Shown: positions 1 to 16,606 of the stretch, in pieces
Numbering within the stretch: the stretch's first letter is position 1
Layout: each line of letters starts with the position of its first letter
Virus record (IMG/VR): IMGVR_UViG_3300014167_000003
Coordinates: 9,998 to 73,997 of that record
Source of the DNA: a virus
Lineage: Duplodnaviria; Caudoviricetes
Length of the DNA stretch: 64,000 bases
Direction: 5' to 3' (one strand)
The notes under the pieces: model-generated
What the model saw: the letters and a program-made list of their open reading frames with translations, nothing else
Databases searched by the model: none
Told to the model about the DNA's origin: nothing
Made by a program: the position numbers and the translations under genes

Positions 1-186
1 GGGCGCGGGCACGCGCTCTATGTCCACATCACCGCGCACGACAACCACTGGACCGTGGCGCTTAATGAGAGCAAGGCGTTCGTGACGTTCACGCAGGACC
101 GGCTCCGCGCCACGAACAGCTACACGCACGGGCGCGGCATCGACGACGCCAGGATGCGGGAGATCATTAAGCCTCGATCTCGATGA
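1..186 (+). CDS. Partial hypothetical protein (5' end outside window)
   Basis: Frame 1 open from base 1 to TGA 184-186 (GRGHALYVHITAHDNHW...), converging on the - strand cluster. Confidence 0.55.
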   Translation, partial: GRGHALYVHITAHDNHWTVALNESKAFVTFTQDRLRATNSYTHGRGIDDARMREIIKPRSR

Positions 187-514
187 CGCGCACGCCTGCG
201 GCGCGCGCCTTCTTGACCATGTCGGCGGTGCCGTTCTCGCCCGGGAAGGCCACGACGACGTCCGGCCTCCATTCGAGCATGCGGCTGTTGCGGCGTGGGC
301 CGGCGCCAAGGCCGTACTTCTTCCATTCGGCGCGACAGATGTAGCGCGTGATCTCAGGCTTGGTCGCCGCCCACTCGCTCGCGAAGGTGTCGATGAACTT
401 GGCGCCGCCGTGGATCATGTGCGTGAAGTGCAGCTCGGCGTGGAGCCGGTCGAGATGCGTCCAGACCATCGCCGGGCTACCGAACCTATGGCTCCCGCAG
501 ACGAGGAGCCTCAC
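167..514 (-). CDS. SLOG-family (YspA/DUF2493-like) protein
   Basis: GTG start overlapping upstream TGA; RLLVCGSHRF, IHGGAK, AGPRRNSRML, VVAFPGENGTADMV motifs typical of YspA-like SLOG. Confidence 0.8.
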   Translation of the reverse strand: MRLLVCGSHRFGSPAMVWTHLDRLHAELHFTHMIHGGAKFIDTFASEWAATKPEITRYICRAEWKKYGLGAGPRRNSRMLEWRPDVVVAFPGENGTADMVKKARAAGVRVIEIEA

Positions 515-903
515 GCCTTGCTCCAGGCGATCAGGTTGACCTTGTGGTGCTCGATCAGCGCCCAGATCTTCGGCGCCCGCGCCTGAAGCTCCGCGAGGCC
601 CGTGCCGATCCCGTCCGCCGGCCAGACCACTTCGTTGCCGGATCTGATGTGGTTGAGCAGCCGGGTGAACCGCGCATCGATCAGCAGGCGGACCTTTTCG
701 AGATCCTCGTTCTTGAAGAACGCGTCCTCGCGCATGTGCGGCGCCCACTTCGTCGGGATGCCGACCGCGTTCGGCTCGCCGCGCATCTCCTTGGCCTGGC
801 CGCCGCGCCCGATGCCGGCGTAGTTGTCGCCGAAGACAAAGAGCGTGGCCGGGTTGGCGCGGAGCATCGCGCGGGTGATGTGCTTCTCAATGCGGAAGGT
901 CAC
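511..903 (-). CDS. Conserved phage protein with FVFGDN...GGQA motif (possibly macrodomain-like)
   Basis: GTGA-coupled start; LFVFGDN-x4-GRGGQAKEMRGEPNAVGIPTK and DGIGTGLA motifs. Confidence 0.7.
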   Translation of the reverse strand: MTFRIEKHITRAMLRANPATLFVFGDNYAGIGRGGQAKEMRGEPNAVGIPTKWAPHMREDAFFKNEDLEKVRLLIDARFTRLLNHIRSGNEVVWPADGIGTGLAELQARAPKIWALIEHHKVNLIAWSKA

Positions 904-1157
904 GGCACCTTCCTCAAGTTCTGCGCCGAGTAGATGTGCAGGAAGCCGGGCTCGTGCTCGACCACGTACCGGATCACGTTCTTGCTCGTCTTCGCCCAGC
1001 CGATCACGGTGCCTTCGAGCTGGTAGTCGCCCGTGTACTTCTCCACCCGGTCGCCAGGGAAGAATTGGACTGTCAGATCCGGGCTGCAGCGCGACATGCA
1101 GGCATTGGTGTGCTCGCACGCGCGCGGAGACTTGCAGGTCGGCGGCGGGAAGGTCAT
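900..1157 (-). CDS. Hypothetical protein, SH3-like C-terminus
   Basis: ATGA overlap with upstream gene; FFPGDRVEKYTGDYQLEGTVIG beta-rich motif. Confidence 0.6.
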   Translation of the reverse strand: MTFPPPTCKSPRACEHTNACMSRCSPDLTVQFFPGDRVEKYTGDYQLEGTVIGWAKTSKNVIRYVVEHEPGFLHIYSAQNLRKVP

Positions 1158-1354
1158 TGAGGCAATTCCTGCGTCCACTCGTGCCCGCAATTCGGACAAC
1201 GACGAGTTACGATGTCGCCGCCAGGATACCCGTCTTCCTGCTCGCCGACTTCGCGCGCATCGGGATGCAGGACAAGCGCGCCCTTAGTCGCGCCGGGCGA
1301 CCATGGGTGTTCGGCCGTGCAGATGAACGGGTTGCTGAAGTCGGGTTTGCTCAT
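1154..1354 (-). CDS. Small Cys/His protein (zinc-ribbon-like)
   Basis: Coupled ORF; CPNCG motif. Confidence 0.65.
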   Translation of the reverse strand: MSKPDFSNPFICTAEHPWSPGATKGALVLHPDAREVGEQEDGYPGGDIVTRRCPNCGHEWTQELPQ

Positions 1355-1605
1355 GTTGCCGGCCCTTCGCAGAAGCCCATGACACCGTAGCCGTCGATGG
1401 TGACGATGTGCACGTCCTTCCAGCCGATGCGGTCGTCGTCGCCACCATTGGGTGTGACGCCGACCTGATCGTCGGTGAAGCCGTCCATGGTTGGCCAGTT
1501 GCGCAGCTCGTGCCGCAGGTGCGCAATGAGGCCGGCCCGGCCGTCGACCTCGACCATCTCGGCCAATGAGTCCCAGACGAGACCCTTGTGCGGGCGGTAC
1601 TTCAC
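1351..1605 (-). CDS. Hypothetical phage protein
   Basis: Coupled start/stop overlaps with both neighbours. Confidence 0.65.
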   Translation of the reverse strand: MKYRPHKGLVWDSLAEMVEVDGRAGLIAHLRHELRNWPTMDGFTDDQVGVTPNGGDDDRIGWKDVHIVTIDGYGVMGFCEGPAT

Positions 1606-1901
1606 TTCGGCTCCTCCAGCTGCTTCTTCGGCTCCTCCTTCATGATCGACGGCGGCGCGTCGGCCTCGAACTCGTCGAGCGCCTGGTCCAGATCGGCCTT
1701 GTACTGCTCGCGACGTCGGGCATTGACCAGATAGGAGTCGTATTCATGGTTTTTTGCCGCCCGATCCTCATCGATCTGCTCGCGCGCGTCGGCGTCGGCC
1801 GCCCGCCGCTCGCCCTTCCAGAACTCGCGCTTGCCATATGGCCGCAGGTGCGTCCACCATTCGCCCGCGCGCGTCAGAATGCCCTTCTTAACCGTGGCCA
1901 T
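1602..1901 (-). CDS. Hypothetical phage protein
   Basis: GGAGGAG RBS upstream; coupled to downstream ORF. Confidence 0.65.
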   Translation of the reverse strand: MATVKKGILTRAGEWWTHLRPYGKREFWKGERRAADADAREQIDEDRAAKNHEYDSYLVNARRREQYKADLDQALDEFEADAPPSIMKEEPKKQLEEPK

Positions 1902-1952
1902 GTATTTCTCCTCCAGTAACCGCTGCAGCGCACGCGCTCGCCCACATGAACA

Positions 1953-2219
1953 TCACGCCTCTCCCATCACGTTCTCGCCACGGATCAGGAAGAAGTGCTG
2001 CCGCTGCGTCGGGTCGTCGGGACACGGCCGGCTCTGGGCGCCGCCGACGAAGATGATGTCGCCCTTGTCGACGATGCGCCACGCCCTCGGGCCCGGCATC
2101 GCCACGTTGGCCATGGCAACGACCGCCGCGCGCGGCATCGCGTTCGGCGCGCACACCGTGCAGGAGAGCCCGTCATCCTGGCAGACGACGGCGACGCCGA
2201 GGTTGGCGTGTCCGGTCAT
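1953..2219 (-). CDS. Hypothetical Cys-containing protein
   Basis: ATGA overlap with upstream membrane ORF. Confidence 0.6.
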   Translation of the reverse strand: MTGHANLGVAVVCQDDGLSCTVCAPNAMPRAAVVAMANVAMPGPRAWRIVDKGDIIFVGGAQSRPCPDDPTQRQHFFLIRGENVMGEA

Positions 2220-2338
2220 TTCTGCCGCTTCATGTTGTTGCCCGGCCACCGATCCGTCTCGTCCTCGACATGGTTGGCGACCACCGCCGCCGCTACCGCC
2301 AGCCCGTAAACCATCAGAAGCGCAAAAATCAGCGTCAT
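2216..2338 (-). CDS. 40-aa membrane peptide (not in ORF track)
   Basis: MTLIFALLMVYGLAVAAAVVANH...; TGATG and ATGA coupling at both ends. Confidence 0.6.
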   Translation of the reverse strand: MTLIFALLMVYGLAVAAAVVANHVEDETDRWPGNNMKRQK

Positions 2339-2646
2339 CACTCCCCCTTCATCACCTCCTGTGCTGGCTGCGAGAGGGCGCGGCGCGCAATCTCACGAAG
2401 CTCAGATGCAGTATCCTCGCTGTCCGGGTATTGGTCTGTATCGGCGATCTCGCGAAGCGCAGCTTCCATTGTCTGCGCCTTCACGTCCCCGCGCTCGGGG
2501 AGGGTGGCGTAGAGTGGCTCAATCACGATGCTCGATGGATCATGAAACGGCGGCGGCTTGTCGTTGTACGACCACAAAAACGGATCATCCGTATAGGGCC
2601 AACGCCAACGATATGCCACGGGCCGCCCCAGATTCGCTAGGCTCAT
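2338..2646 (-). CDS. Hypothetical phage protein
   Basis: Coupled ORF starting MSLANL. Confidence 0.65.
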   Translation of the reverse strand: MSLANLGRPVAYRWRWPYTDDPFLWSYNDKPPPFHDPSSIVIEPLYATLPERGDVKAQTMEAALREIADTDQYPDSEDTASELREIARRALSQPAQEVMKGE

Positions 2647-3173
2647 CGCTCCGCTCCCACCAAAAAGTTGACGATCTCATCCGCCGTATGATCGCGCCCG
2701 CTGCTCTGGCCAGACAGCTGGACCCAGCCGCCGCCGCTCATGCTCGGCGGCCACAGCGTGAACCCGACCGTGGAGCTATATCGGATCAGCGTGGCGATGC
2801 CCTCGGCGCCGCGCCGGTTGAGGTAGGCGCGCAGGCCGGGATCGCGGTGCGCGTCGGGGTATTTCGGGTCGACCCACACCTGCACCACCGGAACCCTTCG
2901 CACCTCGCCGGTCTCGTCGTCACGCGCCTCAACGTAGTCCATCATCATGTCGACGACCACATGAGATCGATCCGGCCGCGCGAGATCGGCGGCGTCGTCG
3001 TCAACCAGCCAGCGACACGACCAAGCGCCGCACTCCACCGGAAAGCCGGCGCCACGGTAGACGGTGCAGCCGACCTTGAACTTCTGGTGCCGGCAGCGCT
3101 CGCCAGCCTCCTTCGCGAGTGCGCGCACGGGCAGAAGACGGCAGCATAGCTGGCAATCGCCGCAGGACCTCAT
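2643..3173 (-). CDS. YkgJ-like cysteine-cluster (Zn/Fe-binding) protein
   Basis: CGDCQLCC...C...GCTVY...C..WSC.W pattern. Confidence 0.75.
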   Translation of the reverse strand: MRSCGDCQLCCRLLPVRALAKEAGERCRHQKFKVGCTVYRGAGFPVECGAWSCRWLVDDDAADLARPDRSHVVVDMMMDYVEARDDETGEVRRVPVVQVWVDPKYPDAHRDPGLRAYLNRRGAEGIATLIRYSSTVGFTLWPPSMSGGGWVQLSGQSSGRDHTADEIVNFLVGAER

Positions 3174-3457
3174 TGCTCCGCTCCCACCTTCACATCGACC
3201 ACCGCGACCGCGCAGCCCGGCGTCGCGTCCCACTCAACAAAGTACATGAACCGGTGCCCGGCGCGCTCCGCGTCCATCATGCCGAGCGCCTGCATGTCGA
3301 TGGAGCCGAGCACCCGGCCACGGTCGCCGTTCGGCCGGGTGTCGCCCTTCTCGCTATTTCTCTTGCGGACCACGGCGCCGTTCGGGATCGCGCCCTCGGC
3401 CTCGTCGCGCGAGAACGCGCCGATGTAGCCAGGGTGGTTGGCGATGACAGGCTTCAT
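3170..3457 (-). CDS. Hypothetical phage protein
   Basis: Coupled ORF MKPVIANHPG...YFVEWD. Confidence 0.6.
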   Translation of the reverse strand: MKPVIANHPGYIGAFSRDEAEGAIPNGAVVRKRNSEKGDTRPNGDRGRVLGSIDMQALGMMDAERAGHRFMYFVEWDATPGCAVAVVDVKVGAEQ

Positions 3458-3651
3458 CTCGTCCCCCAGGTAAACACGACAGAAGAGTTCCCGTACCGGA
3501 GCCCGTCCTGGCGGCAATGAAAGCACCGCACGAACTCGACCAGGAGCGCCGGCCGGTCGCGGACCATGCCGCCCGCGTGCACGTCGATCCGCCCGGTCGG
3601 GTGCCACTCATGGCGCCACGGACCCAGATCATGGAGCGGCGCACAGAGCAT
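3454..3651 (-). CDS. Hypothetical protein with CxxC
   Basis: TGATG coupling; CFHC motif. Confidence 0.5.
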   Translation of the reverse strand: MLCAPLHDLGPWRHEWHPTGRIDVHAGGMVRDRPALLVEFVRCFHCRQDGLRYGNSSVVFTWGTR

Positions 3652-3893
3652 CACCTCGTCCTCAACATCAGCCTGGCCATCGCCTCCCGCATCACCGGCA
3701 ACCCAGCCTTCCAGCACTCCTCGTCGGCATCGCCGCACCAGCCCGTCGCGCAGTGCGCGGCGTTGAACACCGCGTAGAGCGTCTCGGCCGCCTCTGCGTT
3801 AACTCGCTCACGTTCGAGCGGCGAGAGACGTTCAAAGGCATCGGTCACCATCGGCTCCGTCCCGCAATACTCATCCAGGTTCGCGAGGCTCAT
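3651..3893 (-). CDS. Hypothetical phage protein, first of the - strand accessory run
   Basis: GGAGG RBS upstream; starts MSLANL. Confidence 0.65.
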   Translation of the reverse strand: MSLANLDEYCGTEPMVTDAFERLSPLERERVNAEAAETLYAVFNAAHCATGWCGDADEECWKAGLPVMREAMARLMLRTR

Positions 3894-4025
3894 GACATCC
3901 TCCGTGTGAATGAAAAGAGGGACCCGCAGGCACGAACACGGGCCCCCCTGGCGCCGCCCCAGTCCTGCATCACTACAGGACCACCCTCACCGACCATAGG
4001 GTGTGAGCGAGGAAAGCAAACGGCG

Positions 4026-4143
4026 CCAGATGGGACCCTACCAAAGCCGATGGCGTGTTTACAGATGCGGGTGTCGCGACGGGAACATGGGACCCAAAAA
4101 TTTTGCGGATGGGACCCATATGAAAATTTCCCAGATGGGACCC
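4026..4143. repeat. Four direct copies of ATGGGACCC in non-coding DNA next to terS (candidate pac/terminus region)
   Basis: Copies at 4030, 4087, 4109, 4135; CCAGATGGGACCC at 4026 and 4131; A/T tracts between. Confidence 0.85.
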
Positions 4144-4266
4144 AAGGGAGGGCGGGCTTTAAACCAAAAATTCACCGCCGTCGCCGCGCCTGCGGCCCCC
4201 GCCCGGGTAGTACGGCTCCCCTCCCGGCGGCCCGAGGCGGCCCTGGGTGGGTGGGCCGCCCTGGCG

Positions 4267-4278
4267 TAAGCCCTTGAT
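4267..4278. promoter_or_regulatory. IHF-like site
   Basis: TAAGCCCTTGAT matches YAA-N4-TTGAT (reverse of WATCAA-N4-TTR). Confidence 0.4.
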
Positions 4279-4324
4279 GTGCCGGCGCTATCGGTGGGTC
4301 GACAGATCCAAACGGACGAATGGA

Positions 4325-4864
4325 TCAGTTGAGCGTGTCACCAGGGCCGCGCTCAGGCATCGGCTCAGCAACGGCAGGCAGCTCGGCCTGCTTCGCCTCG
4401 GCCTCCTCGGCCTTGGCGAGCGTCGCAGCCAGGGCAGCAGCCGCGTCCTCGCCCAGCTCGGCCCGCACCTTGGCGAGCACCTCTTCCGTGGTCTGCAGCT
4501 GCGCGAACTCTCCAGGCGCGCCCGTCTCCTTGCGGTCGACGAGGAGCCCGACAAGTCGAGCAGCCAGTTGCGTCGCCTGGATGGCCGCGCTCGTCTGTCC
4601 CAAGTCGCGCGCCAGCTTGCGGTCGTCGGCCAGATCCTGGAGCAAACTCTCAACCGTGATGCGTGTCCTGGTGCTCATCTGTCGCCTGATCTCCTGGATG
4701 CGGCGTTGCACTTCAGCATGCCTCAGCAGCCTGCTGGCATTCACCTCAAGGGCGCGTTGGGTTGTCGTGTTGTAGCCGGCCTCGGCGTAAGCTCTTGTCG
4801 CGTTCTGGTGTTTGACCCAGTTGCGGACGAACTTCTCGTGGCGGATGTTTTGCATCGCGGGCAT
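4325..4864 (-). CDS. terS: Terminase small subunit
   Basis: RHEKFV....NATRAYAEAGY....ASRLL....V...I HTH signature followed by ITVESLL.DL. Confidence 0.85.
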   Translation of the reverse strand: MPAMQNIRHEKFVRNWVKHQNATRAYAEAGYNTTTQRALEVNASRLLRHAEVQRRIQEIRRQMSTRTRITVESLLQDLADDRKLARDLGQTSAAIQATQLAARLVGLLVDRKETGAPGEFAQLQTTEEVLAKVRAELGEDAAAALAATLAKAEEAEAKQAELPAVAEPMPERGPGDTLN

Positions 4865-4905
4865 GGCGAGCACGCTACCACGCGCTGCGCGCTTTGCTCA
4901 AGGTG

Positions 4906-4919
4906 TGAGGCAGGGCTCA
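4906..4919. promoter_or_regulatory. Late-gene dyad upstream of terS
   Basis: TGAGG-CAGG-GCTCA. Confidence 0.65.
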
Positions 4920-5186
4920 GAGGTAGAGCCAGCAGGTGTAGGCGAGGAGGAAGGTGATGGTGATGAGCCAGCACACCGCTTCGCGGTGCAGCTCCTCATC
5001 GGTGCGTGGGCCGCAGGTCATGTGTGGGATCTCATGTCGTCTGAGCCGCGCGCGAGGAGAGCGATGCGCAAAACGCTTGTCAAGCCCACCAGGTACCGCG
5101 CTGATCGCGCTGTTCTTCTTATGTCCCATTCGTTCGTGTGCAAACAATGCGGGCGTTTCACTCGTTGCCGACGCAACCAATTAATT

Positions 5187-5200
5187 TGAGGACGGCCTCA
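5187..5200. promoter_or_regulatory. TGAGG-N4-CCTCA dyad in divergent intergenic region
   Basis: TGAGG-ACGG-CCTCA. Confidence 0.7.
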
Positions 5201-5243
5201 TTTCTTGCTGTTAACACGCGCCGAATATGGTAGTCTTTGCCAT

Positions 5244-5260
5244 GCCCAGATGGCCTGGGC
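5244..5260 (+). promoter_or_regulatory. Hairpin with ATGGC loop, copy 1
   Basis: GCCCAG-ATGGC-CTGGGC, upstream of ATG 5279. Confidence 0.7.
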
Positions 5261-5278
5261 GATACCTGGGAGAACACC

Positions 5279-5422
5279 ATGCGCAAACAATTCGTCGAGT
5301 GCTCCAGCCGCAAGCAGGCCGAGAAGGCGTGCCCGTGGGCAGAGAAGGTCGTCAAAGTCGAAGGCGGTTATTGGTGTTTTGAGAGCATCTCCGAGTGTGA
5401 AAGTTGGAAGAAGCAGAAGTAG
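5279..5422 (+). CDS. Small hypothetical protein
   Basis: GGAG RBS; MRKQFVECSSRKQAEKACPWA... Confidence 0.65.
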   Translation: MRKQFVECSSRKQAEKACPWAEKVVKVEGGYWCFESISECESWKKQK

Positions 5423-5433
5423 CGGCACCACAC

Positions 5434-5452
5434 GCCGATGATGGCCATCGGC
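5434..5452 (+). promoter_or_regulatory. Hairpin with ATGGC loop, copy 2
   Basis: GCCGATG-ATGGC-CATCGGC, upstream of ATG 5476. Confidence 0.7.
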
Positions 5453-5475
5453 AATTCAAACCTGAGAGGAACACC

Positions 5476-5688
5476 ATGTCGAAGATCACATCAGAGCCGG
5501 TTGCGGACGACCGCGTCATCGTTGGCGCCTCAGACGCCGTGTATGCCGAGTACAGCGCGCGCGCCGAGGAGCCGTTCACCGTCGCATACGCGTTCAACGA
5601 CGAGATCTATTCGGTTGAGGGCTACAACAGCCGCACTGCCGCTCTCGCCGCCGCAAAGGCCGCCGGCACGCGCGTGGAGGTGCTTTAA
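5476..5688 (+). CDS. Hypothetical protein
   Basis: GAGG RBS; TAATG coupling to recombinase. Confidence 0.65.
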   Translation: MSKITSEPVADDRVIVGASDAVYAEYSARAEEPFTVAYAFNDEIYSVEGYNSRTAALAAAKAAGTRVEVL

Positions 5689-6359
5689 TGCAGACCCTCG
5701 TCGCATACTACCGCGTCAGCACGCAGAAGCAGGGCCGCTCTGGCCTCGGCCTCGATGCACAGAAGGAGGCCGTGCTCCGCTTCGCCGAGCAGCACCGTTT
5801 GGCCATCTCGCACACGTTCATCGAGATCGAGACCGGCAAGGGCGCCGATGCATTGCACCAGCGTCCAGAATTGTCCAAGGCGCTCGATGCCGCGCGTGAG
5901 CACGGCGCCAAGATCGCCGTCGCCAAGCTCGACCGGCTCTCGCGTGATGTCCACTTCATCTCCGGCCTGATGGCGCAGCGCGTGCCGTTCGTCGTCACCG
6001 AACTCGGGCCCGACGTCGATCCCTTCATGCTCCACATCTACGCGGCGGTGGCGCAGAAGGAGGCGGCGCTCATCTCACAACGCACACGCGCGGCATTGCG
6101 GGCCGCCAAGAAGCGCGGCGTCAAGCTCGGCAACCCGAACCTCGCCGCCGCCAATAGGGCCGCCGGTGAGGCCAAGAGCGCCGTGGCGACGGCATTCGCG
6201 AAGAGCGTCAAGCCGTACATCGAACTCATCCAGGCGAAGGGCGTCACCTCGAACCGCGCCATTGCCGCCGAATTGAACCGGCTCAAGGTATCATCCGCGA
6301 CCGGCGCCGCGTGGTCCGACGTGCAGGTCGGCCGCGTCCTCAAACGGCTGGAGGCGTGA
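5688..6359 (+). CDS. Serine recombinase (resolvase/invertase family)
   Basis: YYRVSTQKQ catalytic Ser motif, AKLDRLSR, ISQRTRAAL; C-terminal HTH-like segment. Confidence 0.92.
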   Translation: MQTLVAYYRVSTQKQGRSGLGLDAQKEAVLRFAEQHRLAISHTFIEIETGKGADALHQRPELSKALDAAREHGAKIAVAKLDRLSRDVHFISGLMAQRVPFVVTELGPDVDPFMLHIYAAVAQKEAALISQRTRAALRAAKKRGVKLGNPNLAAANRAAGEAKSAVATAFAKSVKPYIELIQAKGVTSNRAIAAELNRLKVSSATGAAWSDVQVGRVLKRLEA

Positions 6360-6361
6360 AC

Positions 6362-6568
6362 ATGTCAACGTGGCACCAGGACAAGGCCAAGACGCAGCTG
6401 TGGCACGCGACGGAGTGGACCGTGGTGATCGATCCGCCGCATCAGCTGCGCGCCATCTACCGCACCAGCAGCAAGGCCCTCGCCGACGTCTACCTGCGCG
6501 GGCTCAGGGAGAACAACCCGGGCGCCGCCGCGCACGCGTACATTCTGCCACCACAGAAGGAGGCGTGA
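6362..6568 (+). CDS. Hypothetical protein
   Basis: GGAGGCGTGAACATG junction. Confidence 0.65.
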   Translation: MSTWHQDKAKTQLWHATEWTVVIDPPHQLRAIYRTSSKALADVYLRGLRENNPGAAAHAYILPPQKEA

Positions 6569-6570
6569 AC

Positions 6571-6873
6571 ATGGCGTGGTTCTCAACATCATCCGGCCGC
6601 ATCGAGATCGAGATCACCCTCGATCAGGCGCGTACCGGCTACCATCAGGGCCAATGCGACGAGGACGTGCTCTTCCTCTCGCGTGAGCCCGAGATCGCGT
6701 CCCAGCTCGCCGCTATCGATCCGGCGCTCCTTGCCGGCGAATTGCGCGAGTACGGCGCCTGGGACGACAAGGACCTTGCCGACCACGATCAAAACCTGCA
6801 GCGCATCCTCTGGCTCGCCTGCGGCGACATCTTCGACCACCAATTTGACGATGAGGCCGAAACCGGCGCGTGA
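6571..6873 (+). CDS. Hypothetical acidic phage protein
   Basis: Identical GGAGGCGTGAACATG junction. Confidence 0.7.
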   Translation: MAWFSTSSGRIEIEITLDQARTGYHQGQCDEDVLFLSREPEIASQLAAIDPALLAGELREYGAWDDKDLADHDQNLQRILWLACGDIFDHQFDDEAETGA

Positions 6874-6899
6874 GCGCCGGTCGCACCGTGATGCGGTGC

Positions 6900-6916
6900 C
6901 TGACGATGGCCGTCAG
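6900..6916 (+). promoter_or_regulatory. Hairpin with ATGGC loop, copy 3
   Basis: CTGACG-ATGGC-CGTCAG, preceded by GCACCG-TGATG-CGGTGC hairpin at 6883-6899. Confidence 0.7.
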
Positions 6917-6939
6917 CAACACGAACCTGAGAGGTTAAC

Positions 6940-7425
6940 ATGTCCGCCTACATTGTTTCCCACGACCACATCGACGGGCTCCTATCGTTCGCCCTCGATC
7001 AGGTGAGCTACTACGTGCCCACCATTGACCGGCGCATCGAGATCACGCTCGACAATGCCGAGGAGATCGGCCGCATCCTCCTCACCGAGAATGAGCGGAG
7101 CGTCTATTTCCGCTACCGCGATCTCAATGCGAGCAAGCCGGGTCTGAGCAAGCCCGGCACCGATGGCCAGGATGCGGAGAACTACTCATTCCGCCCGTGG
7201 CCATTGAGCCGGCGCCCGCAGCCTATTGAGATCCTCAAGGCATGCGAGTGCTTCGACTACCAGGCCTGCGAGACCGACGACTACGAACAGAGTATCGCCT
7301 GGCGGATCATCGACGCGATCCGGCATGGCGCCATTCGCAAATTGCCCGGGTATGAGAACGCCGATGGGTGGGAGCTGCGCCGCCCGACGTCGAAGGTCAC
7401 GCACAAGGTCGGAGGCGGCCGATGA
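6940..7425 (+). CDS. Conserved hypothetical phage protein
   Basis: MSAYIVS..HID, ENERSV..RY, LKAC.CFDYQACE, LPGYE pattern. Confidence 0.75.
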   Translation: MSAYIVSHDHIDGLLSFALDQVSYYVPTIDRRIEITLDNAEEIGRILLTENERSVYFRYRDLNASKPGLSKPGTDGQDAENYSFRPWPLSRRPQPIEILKACECFDYQACETDDYEQSIAWRIIDAIRHGAIRKLPGYENADGWELRRPTSKVTHKVGGGR

Positions 7426-7688
7426 GCAAGACCATCACCATCCATTGGGACGACGCAGCGTCGTACAACCGCTTCAAGGTGGCTCTCGACGTCCAGAACG
7501 CTGGCAACCTGCGCGCCCTGGCGCGTGAGTTCGTCAAGGTCGTCGACAGCGCCGAGGAGGCCACGCGGTCCACCAAGGGCACATGGGACGACGCCGCCGT
7601 CGTTCTCTTCGTCAATAAGTTCGAGAGCCTCTGCCGCAGCGACGCGCGGTTCTCGACCGCCTACGCGATCTGCCAGGAGAAAGCTTGA
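7422..7688 (+). CDS. Hypothetical protein
   Basis: GGAGG RBS, ATGA overlap. Confidence 0.65.
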   Translation: MSKTITIHWDDAASYNRFKVALDVQNAGNLRALAREFVKVVDSAEEATRSTKGTWDDAAVVLFVNKFESLCRSDARFSTAYAICQEKA

Positions 7689-7695
7689 TCCTGGT

Positions 7696-7723
7696 GGGCC
7701 CGAGGGTTGGCGCCCTCGGGCCC
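7696..7723 (+). terminator. GC-rich hairpin, probable terminator
   Basis: GGGCCCGAGGG-TTGGCG-CCCTCGGGCCC; only weak U tract (TGTT). Confidence 0.6.
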
Positions 7724-7799
7724 TGTTACTGCCGGCGGGCACCCGCGCCTGAGAGGCCACGAGGCCTGATACAGCAACACCGAACAATAGGAGCAATAG

Positions 7800-8360
7800 A
7801 TGGCATTCCGCAAGACAGAGGCCGTCCTGGCCGCACAGCAGGCCCGGAAACAGGCGATGATCGACGCGGCAATTGAGGTCATTGCCAGGGGCGGCATCGA
7901 TGCATTGACCACGCAGGCGGTCGCCGACCGCGTCGAGGTCTCAATTGGCACCGTGTACAATTTCTTCGCAGACGGCTCCGATCTCCTCGCCGCCGCCATC
8001 GTGCAATTGGCCAGGGCCGACATCAACGCCATGCGCAACGCGGCGAAGCTCGAATTGAGGCCCATCAACGCGCTCGCCGCCGCATTGACGGTGTTCTATA
8101 GCCGCCAGGAACGGCGCCGGTTGGTTGAGGCCATGTCCACCATGTCGTCCTACCGCGACGCCATCATCGACGAGATCGCGCGCCTCCTGGAGGAGGTGGT
8201 GCCGCAGGGCCGCCAGATCGCGGCAGCGGGCGTCCTGGGCGCGTTGTACGGCATCCATGGGTTCAGGAGCGGCGCCCAGGATCGCGCATCAGCGGCCGTC
8301 GCGTTCGCTCTCCTGGGCATCGGCGTGCCGGCGAAGGCGGTGGAGCGTCTCGTCGACTAA
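7800..8360 (+). CDS. TetR/AcrR-family transcriptional regulator
   Basis: MIDAAIEVIARGG...TTQAVADRVEVSIGTVYNFF TetR HTH; AGGAG RBS. Confidence 0.88.
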   Translation: MAFRKTEAVLAAQQARKQAMIDAAIEVIARGGIDALTTQAVADRVEVSIGTVYNFFADGSDLLAAAIVQLARADINAMRNAAKLELRPINALAAALTVFYSRQERRRLVEAMSTMSSYRDAIIDEIARLLEEVVPQGRQIAAAGVLGALYGIHGFRSGAQDRASAAVAFALLGIGVPAKAVERLVD

Positions 8361-8368
8361 ACGGTATT

Positions 8369-8575
8369 CTATGGGAGCAGATACCTGGGCGGTGAGCTGG
8401 AATTGCTCGCCGCCCTTTCCTGTTGCAGCGGCCAGAAGAGCGCCCAGCCGGTCTCGACATCGCGGATCAGCATGTGGCGCCCGCTATCCCTCAATTGCCG
8501 GTGCTCCTGCGTCGTGCCGGGCACGACGGCGCCGAGGCGCAATGCGAGATCGCGGCTACACCTCAATTCGATCAT
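8369..8575 (-). CDS. Hypothetical protein
   Basis: Terminal ORF of - strand cluster, overlapping upstream stop region. Confidence 0.5.
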   Translation of the reverse strand: MIELRCSRDLALRLGAVVPGTTQEHRQLRDSGRHMLIRDVETGWALFWPLQQERAASNSSSPPRYLLP

Positions 8576-9308
8576 TTGACCTGCCCTTCCGCTTCACGAG
8601 CACCTGCGCGTAGTCGTGCATGTGCGGGAACGTCGGGATGTCAATATACGCCAGTTCCTCGAAACATCCATCCAGGTAGCGCCAGGCGGCGTCGTCGGCG
8701 CACGCCTCCTCGCGAATGACGATGAGCTTCTGCCCGATCCGCATCGCGCGGAGCATTTGCTTGAACCAGGTGAAGTTGAGCGAGGGCCACGAGCAGAAGA
8801 CCGTGCGGTGGCTGAACCTGCGCACCATGGTCTTGGCCTGACCGCGCTGCTGTCCTAGATCGTGCTCGCCGCAGGTCCAGAAATAGCTCTCGTCGAGCAT
8901 GTCGCTCCCAATGACGTCGATGCCACGGAGCCGCATCAAACGCGTCATGTAGCCGGTGCCGGCGCCAACCTCGATGATCGGGCCATGCTCGGCGAGCGCA
9001 TCGAGAAGCTCGGCGCACGGGAGCGCAAAGCCGTAATGCCGGGTCCAGTAGTCGCGGGTGTGCCAGGCGTTCATGAGCCGGTTCATGTCGGGCATTTCCA
9101 CATCGCCGAAGTCGATGACGCCGGTCTCCTCGCCCTTCTTCAAGATCTCGGCCGTGCGACGGTCGAACTTCCTATGCTCGTCCTCGTACACATCGCCCCA
9201 GGTCTCGATGATCCTGGCGTACGGCCACACCGGCTCGCCGGCCATCCAGGCGGCCATGGTGTCGATCACGATCTTGTCGAGGACGAGGTCGACGGGGAGT
9301 TTGTTCAT
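8556..9308 (-). CDS. Class I SAM-dependent methyltransferase, substrate unknown
   Basis: IIEVGAGTGY motif I; YGFALP upstream; VFCSWP strand. Confidence 0.8.
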   Translation of the reverse strand: MNKLPVDLVLDKIVIDTMAAWMAGEPVWPYARIIETWGDVYEDEHRKFDRRTAEILKKGEETGVIDFGDVEMPDMNRLMNAWHTRDYWTRHYGFALPCAELLDALAEHGPIIEVGAGTGYMTRLMRLRGIDVIGSDMLDESYFWTCGEHDLGQQRGQAKTMVRRFSHRTVFCSWPSLNFTWFKQMLRAMRIGQKLIVIREEACADDAAWRYLDGCFEELAYIDIPTFPHMHDYAQVLVKRKGRSNDRIEV

Positions 9309-9556
9309 AGCGCTGCCCTGATCTCATCCGTGGTCGGCACCAGGATCTGCTTCACCTTCACCCACTGCTCGCGCACCGTGATGTCTTCCCACAGGCGTGG
9401 GCCAACGCGCTTGGGCAACTCGCCCTGAATGAACACGAACAGGTGGCCGTCCGCCGTCTTGCGAAAATGGGCAATGCGCAGCCCGGCCCATTCGGCGTCC
9501 TCGGCCGGCGAATAGATCCACCAGATCTCATGAAAGTCTTCTGGCTCTTCGGTCAC
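9305..9556 (-). CDS. Hypothetical protein
   Basis: GTGA coupling. Confidence 0.55.
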   Translation of the reverse strand: MTEEPEDFHEIWWIYSPAEDAEWAGLRIAHFRKTADGHLFVFIQGELPKRVGPRLWEDITVREQWVKVKQILVPTTDEIRAAL

Positions 9557-10053
9557 TGCAGAACCTCGTGGCCGAGGATGTTGCGGAACGGTCCCATCAT
9601 GATCATTCCGCCGGGCTCGGTCATCTCCTCGAACTCGCCTACGCTCGGCTTGTTGTCCTTGTCGCGCGAGATCTTGAAGAAGCCACCGAAGGCGGTGCCC
9701 TTCTCCTCGGCGACCACCCACACCGCTTCATACCGATCCGCCCGCTGCGACGGTGGCGTCTCCTTGGATGCGTCGAACACAGCACCTTCTGGCGCCGGGA
9801 CCTTGGCCATCCAGGCCTCGCACACGAATGCGTAGTATTGCGCGCCGCCGGTCATCTTGATCACGCGCTTCAATGCCTCGATCATCATGCGCTTCTCGCC
9901 GTGGTCCCGCCACGGGCACGGCACAATGGCCATCGGGCCGTCTTGATGCTGGACAAAGAACATCGGCACCAGCTCGCCGCGCTCGACGAAAATGAGCGCG
10001 GCATGGTCCTTCACGAAATTGAAAAAACTCCGAAGCTCCTCGCTCACAGCCAC
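9553..10053 (-). CDS. Hypothetical phage protein
   Basis: Coupled ORF; YAFVCEAW and R.EAV motifs. Confidence 0.7.
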   Translation of the reverse strand: MAVSEELRSFFNFVKDHAALIFVERGELVPMFFVQHQDGPMAIVPCPWRDHGEKRMMIEALKRVIKMTGGAQYYAFVCEAWMAKVPAPEGAVFDASKETPPSQRADRYEAVWVVAEEKGTAFGGFFKISRDKDNKPSVGEFEEMTEPGGMIMMGPFRNILGHEVLQ

Positions 10054-10815: not shown

Positions 10816-11081
10816 GTGCTGCCCTTCATCTCGGGCTGGCCCTCGAACCGGCGCGTGATCTCCTTGAGCATGGTCACCACATCCTTGCGGGTACCATTGG
10901 AGATGTAATTGACCCGGTCCTCGCCGCCGACATCCGCAAATGGCGTCGTGAGCAATACGAAGCAGACAGTGCGATCCGTGCCCTTGAGCTTGCCATTGAA
11001 CAGCTCATCGAGTCCGTGCGCGACTTCGTTCATCAGTTCACGGAACTCGGCAACGATCTTGTCGTCCGGTGTCTCGCTCAT
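10812..11081 (-). CDS. Conserved hypothetical phage protein
   Basis: FVLLTTPF...NYISNG.R.DV...LKE...RFEG pattern. Confidence 0.7.
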   Translation of the reverse strand: MSETPDDKIVAEFRELMNEVAHGLDELFNGKLKGTDRTVCFVLLTTPFADVGGEDRVNYISNGTRKDVVTMLKEITRRFEGQPEMKGST

Positions 11082-11842
11082 GCTGCGTGCCTGTTTGCAA
11101 TGCGGAGGAAGTCGTCCTCGGCGAGTTCGAGCGTGATCTTCTGTGCCAGCAATTGATCGCCCATCGGCACCCGGCCGGTGGGCACATGAGCGCAGAGCCG
11201 GTGTCTTACCTTCTCGCCGTGCATGACGTCGACATTGCCAGTGAGCGTGCCGCCGCGCACACGGTACCGCGTCCCGGTCTTCCCGCCCACAACAACGAAC
11301 CAGCCACGACTCGTGAACGTCTCGCGCTGCTCCGGCGTGAGATGTTCGAGGAGGAGCCCATTGGCGCGCTCCGTGGCGGCCTGGCGCCGCTCGTGCTCCT
11401 CACGGTGCCGCTGCTCCAGCTGCTCGCGTGCGGCCCACCTCGATGAGAGCCTGCGCAGCATCTCCTGCTCATTATGCTCGGCGACCGCGCGCCGGTAGGC
11501 CTCCTGCTCGCGCCGTCCCTCCTCCTCCCGCGTGATGATCGCGGGCGCCGATGGCGCCCAGAGAACGCGGCCATCGTCGGTGTCGTGGAATGGGTACCAT
11601 TTGATCGAGGTGATGCCGGGTGCCGATGGCATGAACCAGTTGCTCGTCGCCTGCTGGGCGAACGCCGCCATCTGGATCTGGCGATAGTGATCGGAAACAA
11701 GCGTGCCGGTGCCGGTCGGCTCCTGATACTGCCACACCGAGCCGGTCTGCGCCGTCTGGTAGATGTTGAATATCGGCGACGGCGATGACGTCGTCGTCGC
11801 CGTGTTCGTGACCGTAGGCGAGCCGCCGAGCCAGCGCCACAT
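11078..11842 (-). CDS. Partner of the Ubl gene: S/T-rich N-terminus, coiled coil, C-terminal domain with a single Cys
   Basis: LL.HLTPEQR..F...GWFVV.G..G.RYRV...NV...RLCAHVP...PMGDQLLAQKITLE..EDDFLRIAN; starts 1 nt after Ubl stop. Confidence 0.75.
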   Translation of the reverse strand: MWRWLGGSPTVTNTATTTSSPSPIFNIYQTAQTGSVWQYQEPTGTGTLVSDHYRQIQMAAFAQQATSNWFMPSAPGITSIKWYPFHDTDDGRVLWAPSAPAIITREEEGRREQEAYRRAVAEHNEQEMLRRLSSRWAAREQLEQRHREEHERRQAATERANGLLLEHLTPEQRETFTSRGWFVVVGGKTGTRYRVRGGTLTGNVDVMHGEKVRHRLCAHVPTGRVPMGDQLLAQKITLELAEDDFLRIANRHAA

Positions 11843-11843
11843 G

Positions 11844-12080
11844 TCAGCCTCCGACGAGCTGTGGCCTCATCAGGATCTTGCCGGCCTTCGGGTTGAACTC
11901 GGTGATCCGCTTGCCGCTCTCGCCGTCCTCCCTGATCTCGAACGCGCTATATCCTTCCGCGATCAGGGTCTCGAACGTTGCCTTGGCCGCGCGCACCTCG
12001 ACCGGCTTTGCCGGGTCCCAGGTCACTTCGCTGTGGCCGGTGCGGTCCATGATGTTCATTTTGCCGAAGCTGCCGTGCAT
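11844..12080 (-). CDS. 78-aa putative ubiquitin-like (beta-grasp) protein ending in Gly-Gly
   Basis: AGGAGG RBS; predicted beta-beta-alpha-beta-beta-beta; ends KILMRPQLVGG-stop. Confidence 0.7.
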   Translation of the reverse strand: MHGSFGKMNIMDRTGHSEVTWDPAKPVEVRAAKATFETLIAEGYSAFEIREDGESGKRITEFNPKAGKILMRPQLVGG

Positions 12081-12139
12081 GTCTTCCTCCTGTTTTTGTT
12101 TGTCGTCGCTTCCAGGCGATGAACCGCATCGCCTCCTTC

Positions 12140-12349
12140 CTAAAACGGTCTCCTGCCATGTTCCGCCTCGATGTGCATGCGGGCCTCCTCCTCGGTCGCC
12201 CATTGGTGCGGGCTATCCGCCTTAAGACCGACGTTTGCAATGCAGATCCGACAGGCGAAGGTCATTTTATCGGGATAGGTGGCCGGCAGCGGCTCCCACC
12301 AGTCAACACCAGGGAAGGCAAACCACAGGCCGGCGGCGGTCATGGTCAT
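12140..12349 (-). CDS. Small C2H2-like zinc-finger protein
   Basis: CRIC...HIEAEH; ATGA coupling. Confidence 0.6.
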   Translation of the reverse strand: MTMTAAGLWFAFPGVDWWEPLPATYPDKMTFACRICIANVGLKADSPHQWATEEEARMHIEAEHGRRPF

Positions 12350-12531
12350 CGTGGTGTCGCCCACTCCCAGGCACCGTCGCGAAAGACCATGCCGTACTCT
12401 TCGTGGCAGTATTTGCAGGTGAGCTTGTCGCCCTCCTCGGGCGGCTTCTCGGCGGCCACCATCGCCTCATCGAGCGTCGCGATACAACAGCGCATCAGGC
12501 CGCCATGGCGCACAAGGTACTTTTCATTCAC
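12346..12531 (-). CDS. Small Cys-rich protein
   Basis: RCC and CKYC motifs. Confidence 0.6.
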   Translation of the reverse strand: MNEKYLVRHGGLMRCCIATLDEAMVAAEKPPEEGDKLTCKYCHEEYGMVFRDGAWEWATPR

Positions 12532-12569: not shown

Positions 12570-12977
12570 TCACGCCTTCTTCTTGACGGGCCGTTTCTCC
12601 GCGCGCTCGCGGCGCTTGGCCAGGAGCGCCATGTATTCCTTCTTCTCCTGCTTCGCCTTGGCGATCTCGGTGTCGTAGTTGGGCTTCTCGTCGCGCACGA
12701 GGTCGTATTTGTAGCCCATGGCGCCGGCCATCTTGGCGAAGGTCGCGTGCTGCGGGCGCCGCGTCTGACCACCGAACATGTTGTGAATGGTGCTCGGCGA
12801 GAGGCCCGCAAGGTCCGCCAGGTCGATCTCCTTGATGCGCTCCTTCTGCCAAAGCGTCCTGAACTTGTCGATCTCAGGGTCCTTGTCGATGAAGTTGTAG
12901 CTGCGCGTTAACCAGAGAGAGCCACTATTGCTCCCTTTCATGGTGGTGAGTATCGACCTCGGCGTACGCTTAAGCAT
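12570..12977 (-). CDS. XRE/Cro-like HTH protein
   Basis: EIDLADLAGLSPSTIHNMFGGQTRRP HTH; basic C-terminus. Confidence 0.75.
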   Translation of the reverse strand: MLKRTPRSILTTMKGSNSGSLWLTRSYNFIDKDPEIDKFRTLWQKERIKEIDLADLAGLSPSTIHNMFGGQTRRPQHATFAKMAGAMGYKYDLVRDEKPNYDTEIAKAKQEKKEYMALLAKRRERAEKRPVKKKA

Positions 12978-13728
12978 TGGCTACTTCCTCCTGATGTTCA
13001 ACAACCGCCTTTGCCTTCGGCGCGGGCGGTACCAATTTGACCTTCTTGACCTTGGCGATCTCCTCGCCGACCGTCTTGAGTTTGCCGATAATTTTGTACT
13101 TACCCTCCTCGACCCGCGCGATGACCTTGTCGTCGAGGAGCTTCTTGATCTGTGGCGACACCGACTTCGGCGAGCGCCCGGCCGCCTCGAACAGGCGCTC
13201 CAGCTCCGCATTGGTGAACGTGCCAGCCCGGTGCTTCATCTTCTTCCAGATCAATTCGGCGCCAGACATCCCGAACGCAGCAAGCCCCCGTGGCTTGCGC
13301 GGGGGCTTGTCTTGCTTGGGCTTAACAGTTTTCGGCTTGGCGCTGGGCTTTGGGTGATGCTCGATCAGCTTGATCGTATCCTGGCGCCGGTAGCGTCCCG
13401 GGGCGATGCGGGCGAGCGTCTTGCCGGCCTGCAATTCGGAGAGGTAGCCGTAGATCGCCTGGTAGGTGATGCCCTCTTTCTCCAATACGGCAAGCACCTC
13501 TCTCACCGTGAACTCCTCGTGCGCCGCAATGTACTCGTCGATCATCTTCCGGGGCGGCTTCGCAAATTGCTTCTTTTGCCGGAACGTCGCGATGTCGGTG
13601 ATCATCTCGTACCCGACATTGGTGATGCCCAGGGATAGGAAGGTGGTCAGCACGGCTTCGAGGTTACCCTGTTCGATCTCGGCGCTCACGCGCCACCGCA
13701 CCTGCATCTCGATCTGTTTCTTTGCCAA
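12970..13728 (-). CDS. Basic protein with two putative winged-helix modules
   Basis: FTVREVL...YQAIYGYLSEL...RIAPGRY and FTNAELE...SPKSVSPQIKKL...RVEEGKY; TTG start. Confidence 0.65.
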   Translation of the reverse strand: MAKKQIEMQVRWRVSAEIEQGNLEAVLTTFLSLGITNVGYEMITDIATFRQKKQFAKPPRKMIDEYIAAHEEFTVREVLAVLEKEGITYQAIYGYLSELQAGKTLARIAPGRYRRQDTIKLIEHHPKPSAKPKTVKPKQDKPPRKPRGLAAFGMSGAELIWKKMKHRAGTFTNAELERLFEAAGRSPKSVSPQIKKLLDDKVIARVEEGKYKIIGKLKTVGEEIAKVKKVKLVPPAPKAKAVVEHQEEVANA

Positions 13729-13782
13729 CGGTCGTCTCCTGTTGCCTTTGTGAAAACTTACTAACGACTCGCCGACAATGTG

Positions 13783-13801
13783 TTAACAGCAGGCGAGTTA
13801 A
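13783..13801. promoter_or_regulatory. TTAAC-N9-GTTAA dyad in divergent region
   Basis: Direct sequence; related TAAC half-sites at 5212, 24083-24120, 62295-62317. Confidence 0.45.
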
Positions 13802-13876
13802 CTCTGGCAGAAATTTGGTGTCCGTCAAACGCGTCGTGTTGCCGGCGGAACATCTCCCTCAAAAAAAATATCAACA

Positions 13877-13896
13877 AGTGTTCCCGTGGGAACACT
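13877..13896. promoter_or_regulatory. Perfect 9-bp inverted repeat upstream of the Crp/Fnr gene
   Basis: AGTGTTCCC-GT-GGGAACACT, ending 20 nt before ATG 13917. Confidence 0.6.
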
Positions 13897-13916
13897 CTTC
13901 AAGCGACGGGTGGACT

Positions 13917-14561
13917 ATGCCCAAGGCCGTTGAGACCTTCTTGTCCAAGCTCAAGGACCCGAGGATCGTCACTCACAAGTACGATGTCGGCGAGGCCATC
14001 TACCGAACCGGCGATGCGGCCAAGTCGATCTTCTGGCTCCGCATTGGTCGGCTCAAGACCACGGTGCCAGCCGAGATCCCGGGCCACACCGACCCGGTGG
14101 TGGCGATCACCGAGGCGGGAGAGTTCTTCGGCGAGGCGGCGCTGCTCCACCCGCCCAGGCGCGTCGCCACCGTCACTGCCATGATCCCCTGCGAGATCGT
14201 CGAATTGCCAAATGAGGCGGCCCTCGAAGCCATGGGCCAGCAGCCCGGCCTCGCCATCTACATCATCCGCCACCTCCTCCACGACCGGCGCCAGCGCGGC
14301 GCCATGGCCATGGTGCGGCGCGTCGGCACCCTGGAGCAACGGGTGGCGTTCGTGCTCCTCTCCCTGGAGAAGTTCGGCGCGGTGCCGACCGGCGTGACGC
14401 AGCAGATGATCGGCGAGCTGTGCGACATCTCCCGCGCCAGGACGTCGACCATTTTGAATGCGATGAAGGCGAAGGGGATGATCCACTACAACGCCACCAT
14501 AGACCTGGACATGCCGAAGCTGATCGACATGCTCCCGGCGTCGGTGCGGGACTTCGTGTGA
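13917..14561 (+). CDS. Crp/Fnr-family regulator (cNMP-binding domain plus HTH)
   Basis: GE.IY..GD....F....G, GEFFGEAALL..PRR.ATV.A, LEQRVA..LL, TQQMIGELCDISRARTSTILN. Confidence 0.9.
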   Translation: MPKAVETFLSKLKDPRIVTHKYDVGEAIYRTGDAAKSIFWLRIGRLKTTVPAEIPGHTDPVVAITEAGEFFGEAALLHPPRRVATVTAMIPCEIVELPNEAALEAMGQQPGLAIYIIRHLLHDRRQRGAMAMVRRVGTLEQRVAFVLLSLEKFGAVPTGVTQQMIGELCDISRARTSTILNAMKAKGMIHYNATIDLDMPKLIDMLPASVRDFV

Positions 14562-14562
14562 T

Positions 14563-14937
14563 CTAGTGCCCGACATTGACGAGCGCCTCGGCCATCTCAC
14601 AGAGCGCCTTCTGCAGTGACGTCGGGAGAGCCTGGAAGGCCACCACCATGCGGGCGCCCACCCGCGTCGAGGCCATCTGCAGCGTCTGGCTCTCGATCTC
14701 GTTTATGACGAAGCCGTCACCAAGGAAGAAGCTCGGCGCCACGTCGAGCAGGTTGGCCAGCTGCAGCATGCGCGAGCCCGAGATCCGGTTCGTGCCCTTC
14801 TCGTACTTCTGGACCTGCTGGAACGACACGCCGAGATCGTGGGCGATCTTCTCCTGGCTGTAGCCCATCTCCAGCCGGCGGGCGCGCAGCCGCGCGCCGA
14901 TCTGCTGGTCCATGACCTTGGTTTCTGCGGTCTGCAT
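14563..14937 (-). CDS. PraR-like XRE-family repressor (candidate immunity repressor)
   Basis: IGARLR.RR...GYSQEK.A..LGVSFQQVQKYEKGTNRIS.SRM...A..LDV...FF, the rhizobial PraR-type HTH. Confidence 0.88.
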   Translation of the reverse strand: MQTAETKVMDQQIGARLRARRLEMGYSQEKIAHDLGVSFQQVQKYEKGTNRISGSRMLQLANLLDVAPSFFLGDGFVINEIESQTLQMASTRVGARMVVAFQALPTSLQKALCEMAEALVNVGH

Positions 14938-15307: not shown

Positions 15308-16606
15308 ATGCCGAGCATCACCACCGAGATCTGCAAGCGCAAGGTCACCCAGCGCACCGACATCTACGACAACAAGTGCCGAGGCTTCAGCGTCCGCCTG
15401 TCGCCCACGGCGCCGGCCATGTTCGCCTTCAAGTACTACGACAAGGCGCTCGGCAAGCAGGTCAAGCTGACCCTGCAGCACTTCGACCCGATCAACTACA
15501 CCGTCGATAAGGCGCGCGCCGAGGCCTACCAGCTCAAGGCGAAGGCCGAGGCCGGCGTCGATCTCGCGCAGCAGAAGCGCGTCGCCACCACACAGCGCGC
15601 CAAGATCAGCGGCGTGACGTTCGAACAGATCGCCAAGGAGTACATCGACGCGATCAGCACCTTGGAAAAGAAGGCCGATGGCGAGCTGCGGCCGGTCAAG
15701 GAGAGCTGGAAGAACGACGAGGGTTACCTGAAGCGTCCACGCGCGGCGTGGGGCGCATGGGTCGCCTCCGAGGTCACCGACGATGATGTGATGGCTCTCC
15801 TGTTCTCCATCGACTCCGTGTCCAGCCGCAACCGGACCCGCTCCGTGCTCCACACGATGTTCAAGTGGGCGAAGCAGCCGCCGCGCAAGTACGTCACCAG
15901 CAACCCGTGCAGCGACCTGCCGAAGCGTGACAAGGAGTACAGCAAGGACCGCGCGCTCGACCGCGACGAGATCAAGAAGCTCTGGATCGGTCTCGACCAT
16001 CCCGACCTTCCGGCATCGCGGCCGGTGGCGCTGGCTCTCAAGCTGATCCTGTGCACGATGCTGCGCCCCGGCGAGGTGATCGTTGCCGAGCGGTCGTTCC
16101 TGAAGACGGTCGCCAAGGTGCAGGTCATCCAGTTGCCGCTGAAGGCCGTGAAGAAGCGCCGGGCGATCACCCAGCCGTTGACCGGCCTCGCACTGGCGCT
16201 GATCGCCGAGGCCAAGTCGAAGCACAACCACGACCTCCTGTTCATCGGCCGTAGCCACAAGACCGGTGACGCCGTGCCGATGAAGCGCAACACGCTGTCG
16301 CAGGCACTCGTTGGCAAGAAGGACAAGAAGGGCAAGGTGCTGCGTCAGGGCATCCTCGACTTCCTCAGGATGAAGAAGTTCACGCCGCACGATCTGCGGC
16401 GCACGGCGGCGACGTTGGCGGGTGACGCCGGCTTCGACGACAAGACCATCGGCCGTTGCCTCGACCACGCCGAGGAAGGCGCCGCCGATGTGACCGGCGT
16501 CTATAACCGCTCTGCCTACATTGAACCGCGTCGGCAGGTGCTCGCTGCGGTCGAGAGCCAGCTCTTGGAGATCCTCGGCGACAAGGCGCTGCCTCTCGCG
16601 GCCTGA
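15308..16606 (+). CDS. int: Tyrosine integrase with N-terminal arm-binding domain
   Basis: Catalytic R (MLRPGEV), HDLRRT, LDH, VYNRS. Confidence 0.95.
   Translation: MPSITTEICKRKVTQRTDIYDNKCRGFSVRLSPTAPAMFAFKYYDKALGKQVKLTLQHFDPINYTVDKARAEAYQLKAKAEAGVDLAQQKRVATTQRAKISGVTFEQIAKEYIDAISTLEKKADGELRPVKESWKNDEGYLKRPRAAWGAWVASEVTDDDVMALLFSIDSVSSRNRTRSVLHTMFKWAKQPPRKYVTSNPCSDLPKRDKEYSKDRALDRDEIKKLWIGLDHPDLPASRPVALALKLILCTMLRPGEVIVAERSFLKTVAKVQVIQLPLKAVKKRRAITQPLTGLALALIAEAKSKHNHDLLFIGRSHKTGDAVPMKRNTLSQALVGKKDKKGKVLRQGILDFLRMKKFTPHDLRRTAATLAGDAGFDDKTIGRCLDHAEEGAADVTGVYNRSAYIEPRRQVLAAVESQLLEILGDKALPLAA

Follow-up and report, generated by a model that had tools for sequence, protein, structure and literature searches.

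Ubiquitin-like tagging in bacteria has so far been described as a host weapon against phages (Bil, Bub, type II CBASS), always with an E1. Bil operons encode a Ubl, an E2, a JAB peptidase and an E1, and similar E1/E2/JAB/Ubl gene clusters were described by Iyer et al. 2006 (PMC1779556). An E1-free route is represented by E2-only (type II short) CBASS, in which the Serratia E2 forms a Cys101 thioester with the C-terminal Gly of cGAS after removing the last residue, using Cys101 and His87 (bioRxiv 10.1101/2022.05.25.493364). Among the sulfur carriers of the ThiS/MoaD type, E. coli MoaD is a small beta-grasp protein that ends in Gly-Gly, the moaE gene follows after a gap of 1 nt, and the E1 (MoeB) is encoded elsewhere. 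The known phage case of a ubiquitin-like beta-grasp domain with a conserved C-terminal Gly is the lambda/T1 tail assembly protein I (TAPI), which is partnered by the JAB/NlpC peptidase TAPK (PMC1779556). Here, we analyzed a two-gene unit of a tailed phage that consists of a small protein with a predicted ubiquitin fold ending in a free Gly-Gly and a partner protein with a single invariant cysteine. In our literature searches, no paper describing this pair was found.

The analyzed stretch of 64,000 nucleotides (the window) corresponds to bases 9998-73997 of the complete 73,997-bp virus record IMGVR_UViG_3300014167_000003, which has direct terminal repeats and originates from a wetland metagenome. 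The phage encodes SU10-like portal and adaptor proteins, a terminase small subunit, RecT, a PDDEXK nuclease, a DnaB-like helicase and a tyrosine integrase. The pair is located on the minus strand in the regulatory/early region, in a run of small genes between a methyltransferase gene (8556-9308) and HTH regulators (12570-12977, 14563-14937), next to the integrase gene (15308-16606) and 19 kb from the structural genes. All positions below refer to the window:

11844-12080, minus strand: gene for the 78-aa Gly-Gly protein (P0001), with the stop codon TGA at 11844-11846
11847-11864, minus strand: codons for the C-terminal tail P-Q-L-V-G-G
12086-12091, minus strand: Shine-Dalgarno sequence AGGAGG, 5 nt before the ATG at 12080
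11078-11842, minus strand: gene for the 254-aa partner (P0002), with the stop codon at 11078-11080, separated from the TGA of the Gly-Gly gene by the single base 11843
11543-11842, minus strand: partner residues 1-100, a predicted disordered, Thr/Ser/Trp/Tyr-rich and almost lysine-free head
11342-11530, minus strand: partner residues 105-167, predicted to form one long Ala/Arg/Glu/Gln helix
11081-11335, minus strand: partner residues 170-254, the conserved end domain, predicted as a helix, a four-strand meander, two helices and a last strand
11192-11194, minus strand: codon of Cys217 (TGC), the only cysteine of the partner

The original prediction described a 78-aa ORF with a strong ribosome binding site that ends in LVGG-stop and, one base further, a 254-aa protein with one cysteine followed by helices in its C-terminal domain, without ThiF/E1 or JAB genes in the window, and this observation was correct in each detail. 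Cys217 lies in the sequence VRHRLCAHVP and is followed by predicted helices at residues 227-248. A longer, 119-aa frame starting at 12203 is not supported for the small gene, because its relatives begin with the same MHGS/T residues. Third-position GC contents of 0.75 and 0.83 for the two genes fit coding sequence in this genome with 64% GC, and each gene is present once in the genome. Contigs from a wetland metatranscriptome library covered only 12098-12280, just upstream of the small gene and with 100% identity, and the region from 12539 onwards, but not the pair itself, which is too little to speak of expression.

A profile search of 1.84 billion representative sequences with the small protein returned 1,478 clusters at E up to 0.001 and 135 at 1e-10. 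Of the best 150 clusters, 129 end exactly in GG, with PQLVGG and PQLRGG as the commonest tails, whereas the others end in a single Gly (AG, PG, RG) or carry 1-10 residues after GG. In longer members, the domain is always the last one, and a few members are tandem two-domain forms. Pro73, Gly77 and Gly78 are invariant in 21 aligned relatives, which go down to 31% identity. Because GGAGG also encodes Gly-Gly, we considered whether the conserved tail may be a by-product of a ribosome site for the following gene. This was rejected, since only 9 of 35 distinct loci spell GGAGG, the first Gly codon is GGC in 15, GGA in 9, GGT in 6 and GGG in 4 loci, and the stop codons vary as well, so that selection acts on the protein. 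The structure prediction for the small protein gave a beta-grasp, the topology that the original prediction had suggested from the sequence pattern, with a flexible tail directly after the last strand, and structural comparison returned only beta-grasp matches, among them BubA, MoaD, TtuB, UFM1 and SUMO.

For the partner, 93 relatives were found, and an AlphaFold2 model built with 42 of them showed the head with pLDDT values of about 41-60, the helix with values above 95 and the end domain with values of 92-98. In 117 distinct partner sequences, Cys217, Asp229 and Ala249 never change, Asn203, Gln234 and Glu242 change once, and His219 and Pro226 change twice; Asn250 is also invariant or near-invariant. 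Over 94 proteins, the head contains 16.9% Thr, 9.5% Ser, 5.4% Trp, 5.2% Tyr and only 0.1% Lys, and the helix contains 16.0% Arg against 1.4% Lys. Thirty-nine of 81 partners have no lysine before the end domain and 65 of 81 have at most one, whereas the lysine content is 8.0% in the Gly-Gly protein and 5.3% in the end domain. Fifty-two of 94 partners begin with Met-Pro.

Neither protein was recognized by existing family models. Searches against Pfam, PHROGs, NCBIfam and PADLOC gave nothing for P0001 or P0002, Pfam gave nothing for 150 and 42 relatives of the two proteins, respectively, and profile searches of PDB sequences yielded only chance hits. In particular, the ThiS/MoaD model PF02597 matched neither P0001 at E up to 1 nor the 150 relatives at E up to 0.01, an hhalign comparison with E. 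coli MoaD gave a probability of 2%, and no UQ_con or Prok-E2 hit was obtained for P0002 or 41 relatives at E up to 1. For the fold of the partner, Foldseek against the PDB found nothing, a wider structure search (VIA) was filled by coiled coils and single helices matching the long helix, and the ESM Atlas returned only unnamed clusters. In a second look, 12 of 50 rows were E2 enzymes aligned over about 90 residues. The predicted order of helix, four-strand meander and two helices equals that given for E2 domains (PMC1779556), with Cys217 at the end of the fourth strand and Asn203 upstream of it, but the end domain has no H-P-N motif and a much shorter active-site loop than E2 enzymes. No protein of more than 445 aa was found to contain the end domain, which is weak evidence against fused forms.

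The two genes were found together wherever the locus was informative (22/22 counted from the partner and 27/27 from the Gly-Gly protein). Of the 22 viral contigs identified through the partner, 20 have a gene for a 72-98-residue protein ending in P-x-x-x-G-G directly upstream, one carries it 540 bp upstream, and the last is cut by the contig end. Starting from the small protein, 27 of 27 informative loci have the partner directly downstream. Gaps are mostly 1-4 nt or overlaps of the TGATG kind, and the variation of spacing and relative frame between loci rules out that the two genes are joined by programmed frameshifting or read-through. The rule also holds for distant members, namely the tandem forms in Virus Rctr197k, in a 595-kb uncultured phage and in a Logan contig, as well as for members ending in AG or in GG plus an extension. 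In huge phages (Virus Rctr197k, KX853510, 2809-4061; LR756511.1, 220744-221983), the small protein is a tandem of two beta-grasp-like domains and ends in PG instead of GG, while the partner keeps Cys and His, and Rctr197k has a second partner-like gene. Two pattern scans of GTDB genomes with narrow patterns found no relative, and none of the cultured phages has the partner according to tblastn. A 397-aa protein of the cultured jumbo phage Agrobacterium phage Atu_ph07 (BFVD entry A0A2L0UZL2) matched the partner model structurally (E 1.4e-2, probability 1.0, 110 columns) and may offer an experimental handle, although sequence profiles did not find it in the phage genome (MF403008).

No third gene is conserved near the pair, and the neighbors are small unnamed early genes, HTH regulators, integrases and recombination genes. 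A 61-aa protein with a zinc-ribbon-like motif (EEGDKLxCxYC...FRDGAWEW) is encoded upstream of the pair here (12346-12531, minus strand) and in at least three other loci. Near its lysogeny region, the phage additionally encodes a Crp-like cNMP-binding regulator, a TetR regulator and a serine resolvase (13722-14561, 7800-8360 and 5688-6359, plus strand), and the same order of integrase, HTH, Crp, pair and TetR recurs in one further contig (L053). Genome bases 1-9997, just before the window, carry a sugar pathway typical of nonulosonic (sialic/pseudaminic/legionaminic-like) acid synthesis with NeuB, DegT aminotransferase, class-III aminotransferase, cytidylyltransferase, PIG-L deacetylase, formyltransferase, GNAT and GFO/IDH/MocA oxidoreductase, which is unusual cargo for a 74-kb phage.

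ThiF (PF00899) and Prok-JAB (PF14464) are absent not only from the window but from the complete phage record, and a Pfam scan of its 50 larger proteins listed no adenylating or ligase family among the 25 families shown. Of 15 further carriers of the pair, ten of them at least 90% complete, only a 436-kb phage (IMGVR_UViG_3300032782_000001) has a ThiF gene, located 190 kb from its pair. This ThiF gene belongs to a separate operon (3337-6382 of the examined contig, L071) of a Prok-JAB (184 aa, HSHP...S..D motif), an 89-aa protein ending in KTPFG, a 143-aa helical protein and a short ThiF-like E1 (194 aa), with an orphan partner-family gene 1 kb away. The E1 has relatives in 19 other huge phage contigs, and the operon looks like a second, E1-containing ubiquitin-like system of jumbo phages. 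However, of the 19 relatives of this E1 only one has a pair within 7 kb, as expected by chance, and we do not count this proximity as support for a link between the pair and an E1.

Conservation of the terminal GG, of the cysteine and of gene adjacency, as well as the fold comparison, had been named beforehand as tests of the original prediction, which proposed an E1-independent or host-E1-hijacking conjugation pair, or a decoy against ubiquitin-like antiphage systems. This interpretation is partly supported by our results. In the explanation that we favor, with a probability of only about 0.35, the two genes form one translationally coupled phage module, in which a beta-grasp protein uses its free C-terminal Gly-Gly as working end, and the partner is its dedicated acceptor or reader, with a lysine-poor flexible head and a long helix carrying a small domain with an invariant Cys and near-invariant His (Cys-x-His) plus Asn and Asp. 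Most likely, the tail would dock at the cysteine pocket. A free carboxylate cannot become a thioester without energy, and since the phage has no activating enzyme, any covalent step, i.e. a thioester on Cys217 followed by transfer to a target, would have to start with adenylation by a host E1-type enzyme, either the MoeB/ThiF-type enzymes that nearly all bacteria have or the E1 of a host ubiquitin-like defense system. Otherwise, the complex would be non-covalent. The scarcity of lysine before the end domain would be expected for a protein that sits next to a lysine-reactive acyl group and must not tag itself. Our analyses establish the gene anatomy, the predicted fold, the conservation of GG and Cys, the obligate pairing and the absence of a phage E1, whereas docking, adenylation, the thioester or any other product, the use of a host E1 and the targets are inferred.

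Two alternatives are less likely than this explanation and about equal to each other. The Gly-Gly protein, alone or held by its partner, might act as a decoy or trap that occupies the E1/E2 of host systems such as type II CBASS (Cap2), Bil or Bub without itself tagging anything. In line with this, the pair sits among small early/accessory genes next to regulators, the integrase and an anti-restriction-like gene, where counter-defense genes are usual, host systems of this kind recognize a C-terminal Gly tail, and the phage has no E1 or JAB of its own. However, a decoy would not need an obligate second protein with conserved Cys, His, Asn and Asp, and no PADLOC defense-system model was matched. 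Alternatively, the pair might be non-covalent, with a beta-grasp adaptor whose terminal Gly-Gly only fits a binding groove and a cysteine that is structural or binds a metal. Strict placement of the domain at the extreme C-terminus and a near-universal GG are, however, typical of proteins that use the terminal carboxylate, and a single invariant Cys with neighboring His, Asn and Asp is more like an active site than a metal site, which needs more ligands.

A sulfur-carrier function, in which the Gly-Gly protein would be adenylated and thiocarboxylated by host enzymes and deliver sulfur with the partner cysteine as relay, as in MoaD-MoaE or ThiS-ThiG, is unlikely. The gene layout equals that of E. 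coli moaD-moaE, the MoaD tail FFPPVTGG resembles the pattern hydrophobic-P-[QP]-[LMV]-x-GG of the present family, in which the variants PPMVGG, PPIAGG and PPLAGG occur, and MoaD and TtuB are among the fold matches. On the other hand, no PF02597 match was obtained, the partner does not look like a biosynthetic enzyme and has no relation to MoaE or ThiG, and no sulfur-using pathway is visible beside the pair. E1-independent acyl transfer as in E2-only CBASS, in which the partner cysteine, helped by His, would cut a peptide bond after the Gly and so form the thioester without ATP, and for which the minority of family members with 1-10 residues after GG might speak, is very unlikely, because this protein and 86% of the best 150 relatives end at GG-stop, leaving no peptide bond to cut and no energy for a thioester, and there is no sign of read-through.

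It is possible, though doubtful on present evidence, that many phages carry their own minimal ubiquitin-like tagging system, a ready-to-use Gly-Gly modifier plus a miniature E2-like cysteine carrier, which borrows a host E1-type enzyme (MoeB/ThiF or a defense E1) to tag host or phage proteins or to divert host ubiquitin-like immunity. A very widespread phage-borne Gly-Gly protein with a dedicated cysteine partner and no E1 would represent the viral side of bacterial ubiquitin-like tagging, with phages either tagging proteins by borrowing a host enzyme or jamming host immunity. Both families are without any annotation, and about 1,500 protein clusters would gain a testable function. The pair is small (78 + 254 aa) and easy to express.

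In comparison with the Bil and Bub operons and the clusters of Iyer et al. 2006 (PMC1779556), which encode E1 and JAB, the complete phage has neither, no PADLOC, Prok-E2 or Prok_Ub model was matched, and the genes are carried by phages and not by the host. E2-only CBASS likewise works without E1 and places a C-terminal Gly tail in the pocket of a small Cys/His protein, but there the tail belongs to cGAS, a residue after the Gly is cut and the system is a host defense against phage, whereas here the tail ends at the Gly and belongs to a separate predicted beta-grasp protein of the phage. TAPI lies in the tail module and is fused to a further C-terminal domain, while the present Gly-Gly protein is free-ended, encoded in the early region and has a different partner. 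MoaD-MoaE shares the predicted beta-grasp, a similar last strand and tail and the 1-nt gap, and shows that an operon without E1 is normal for this class, but the partner described here, with its disordered head, long helix and invariant Cys, is unrelated to MoaE and is encoded in a phage early region and not in a cofactor operon.
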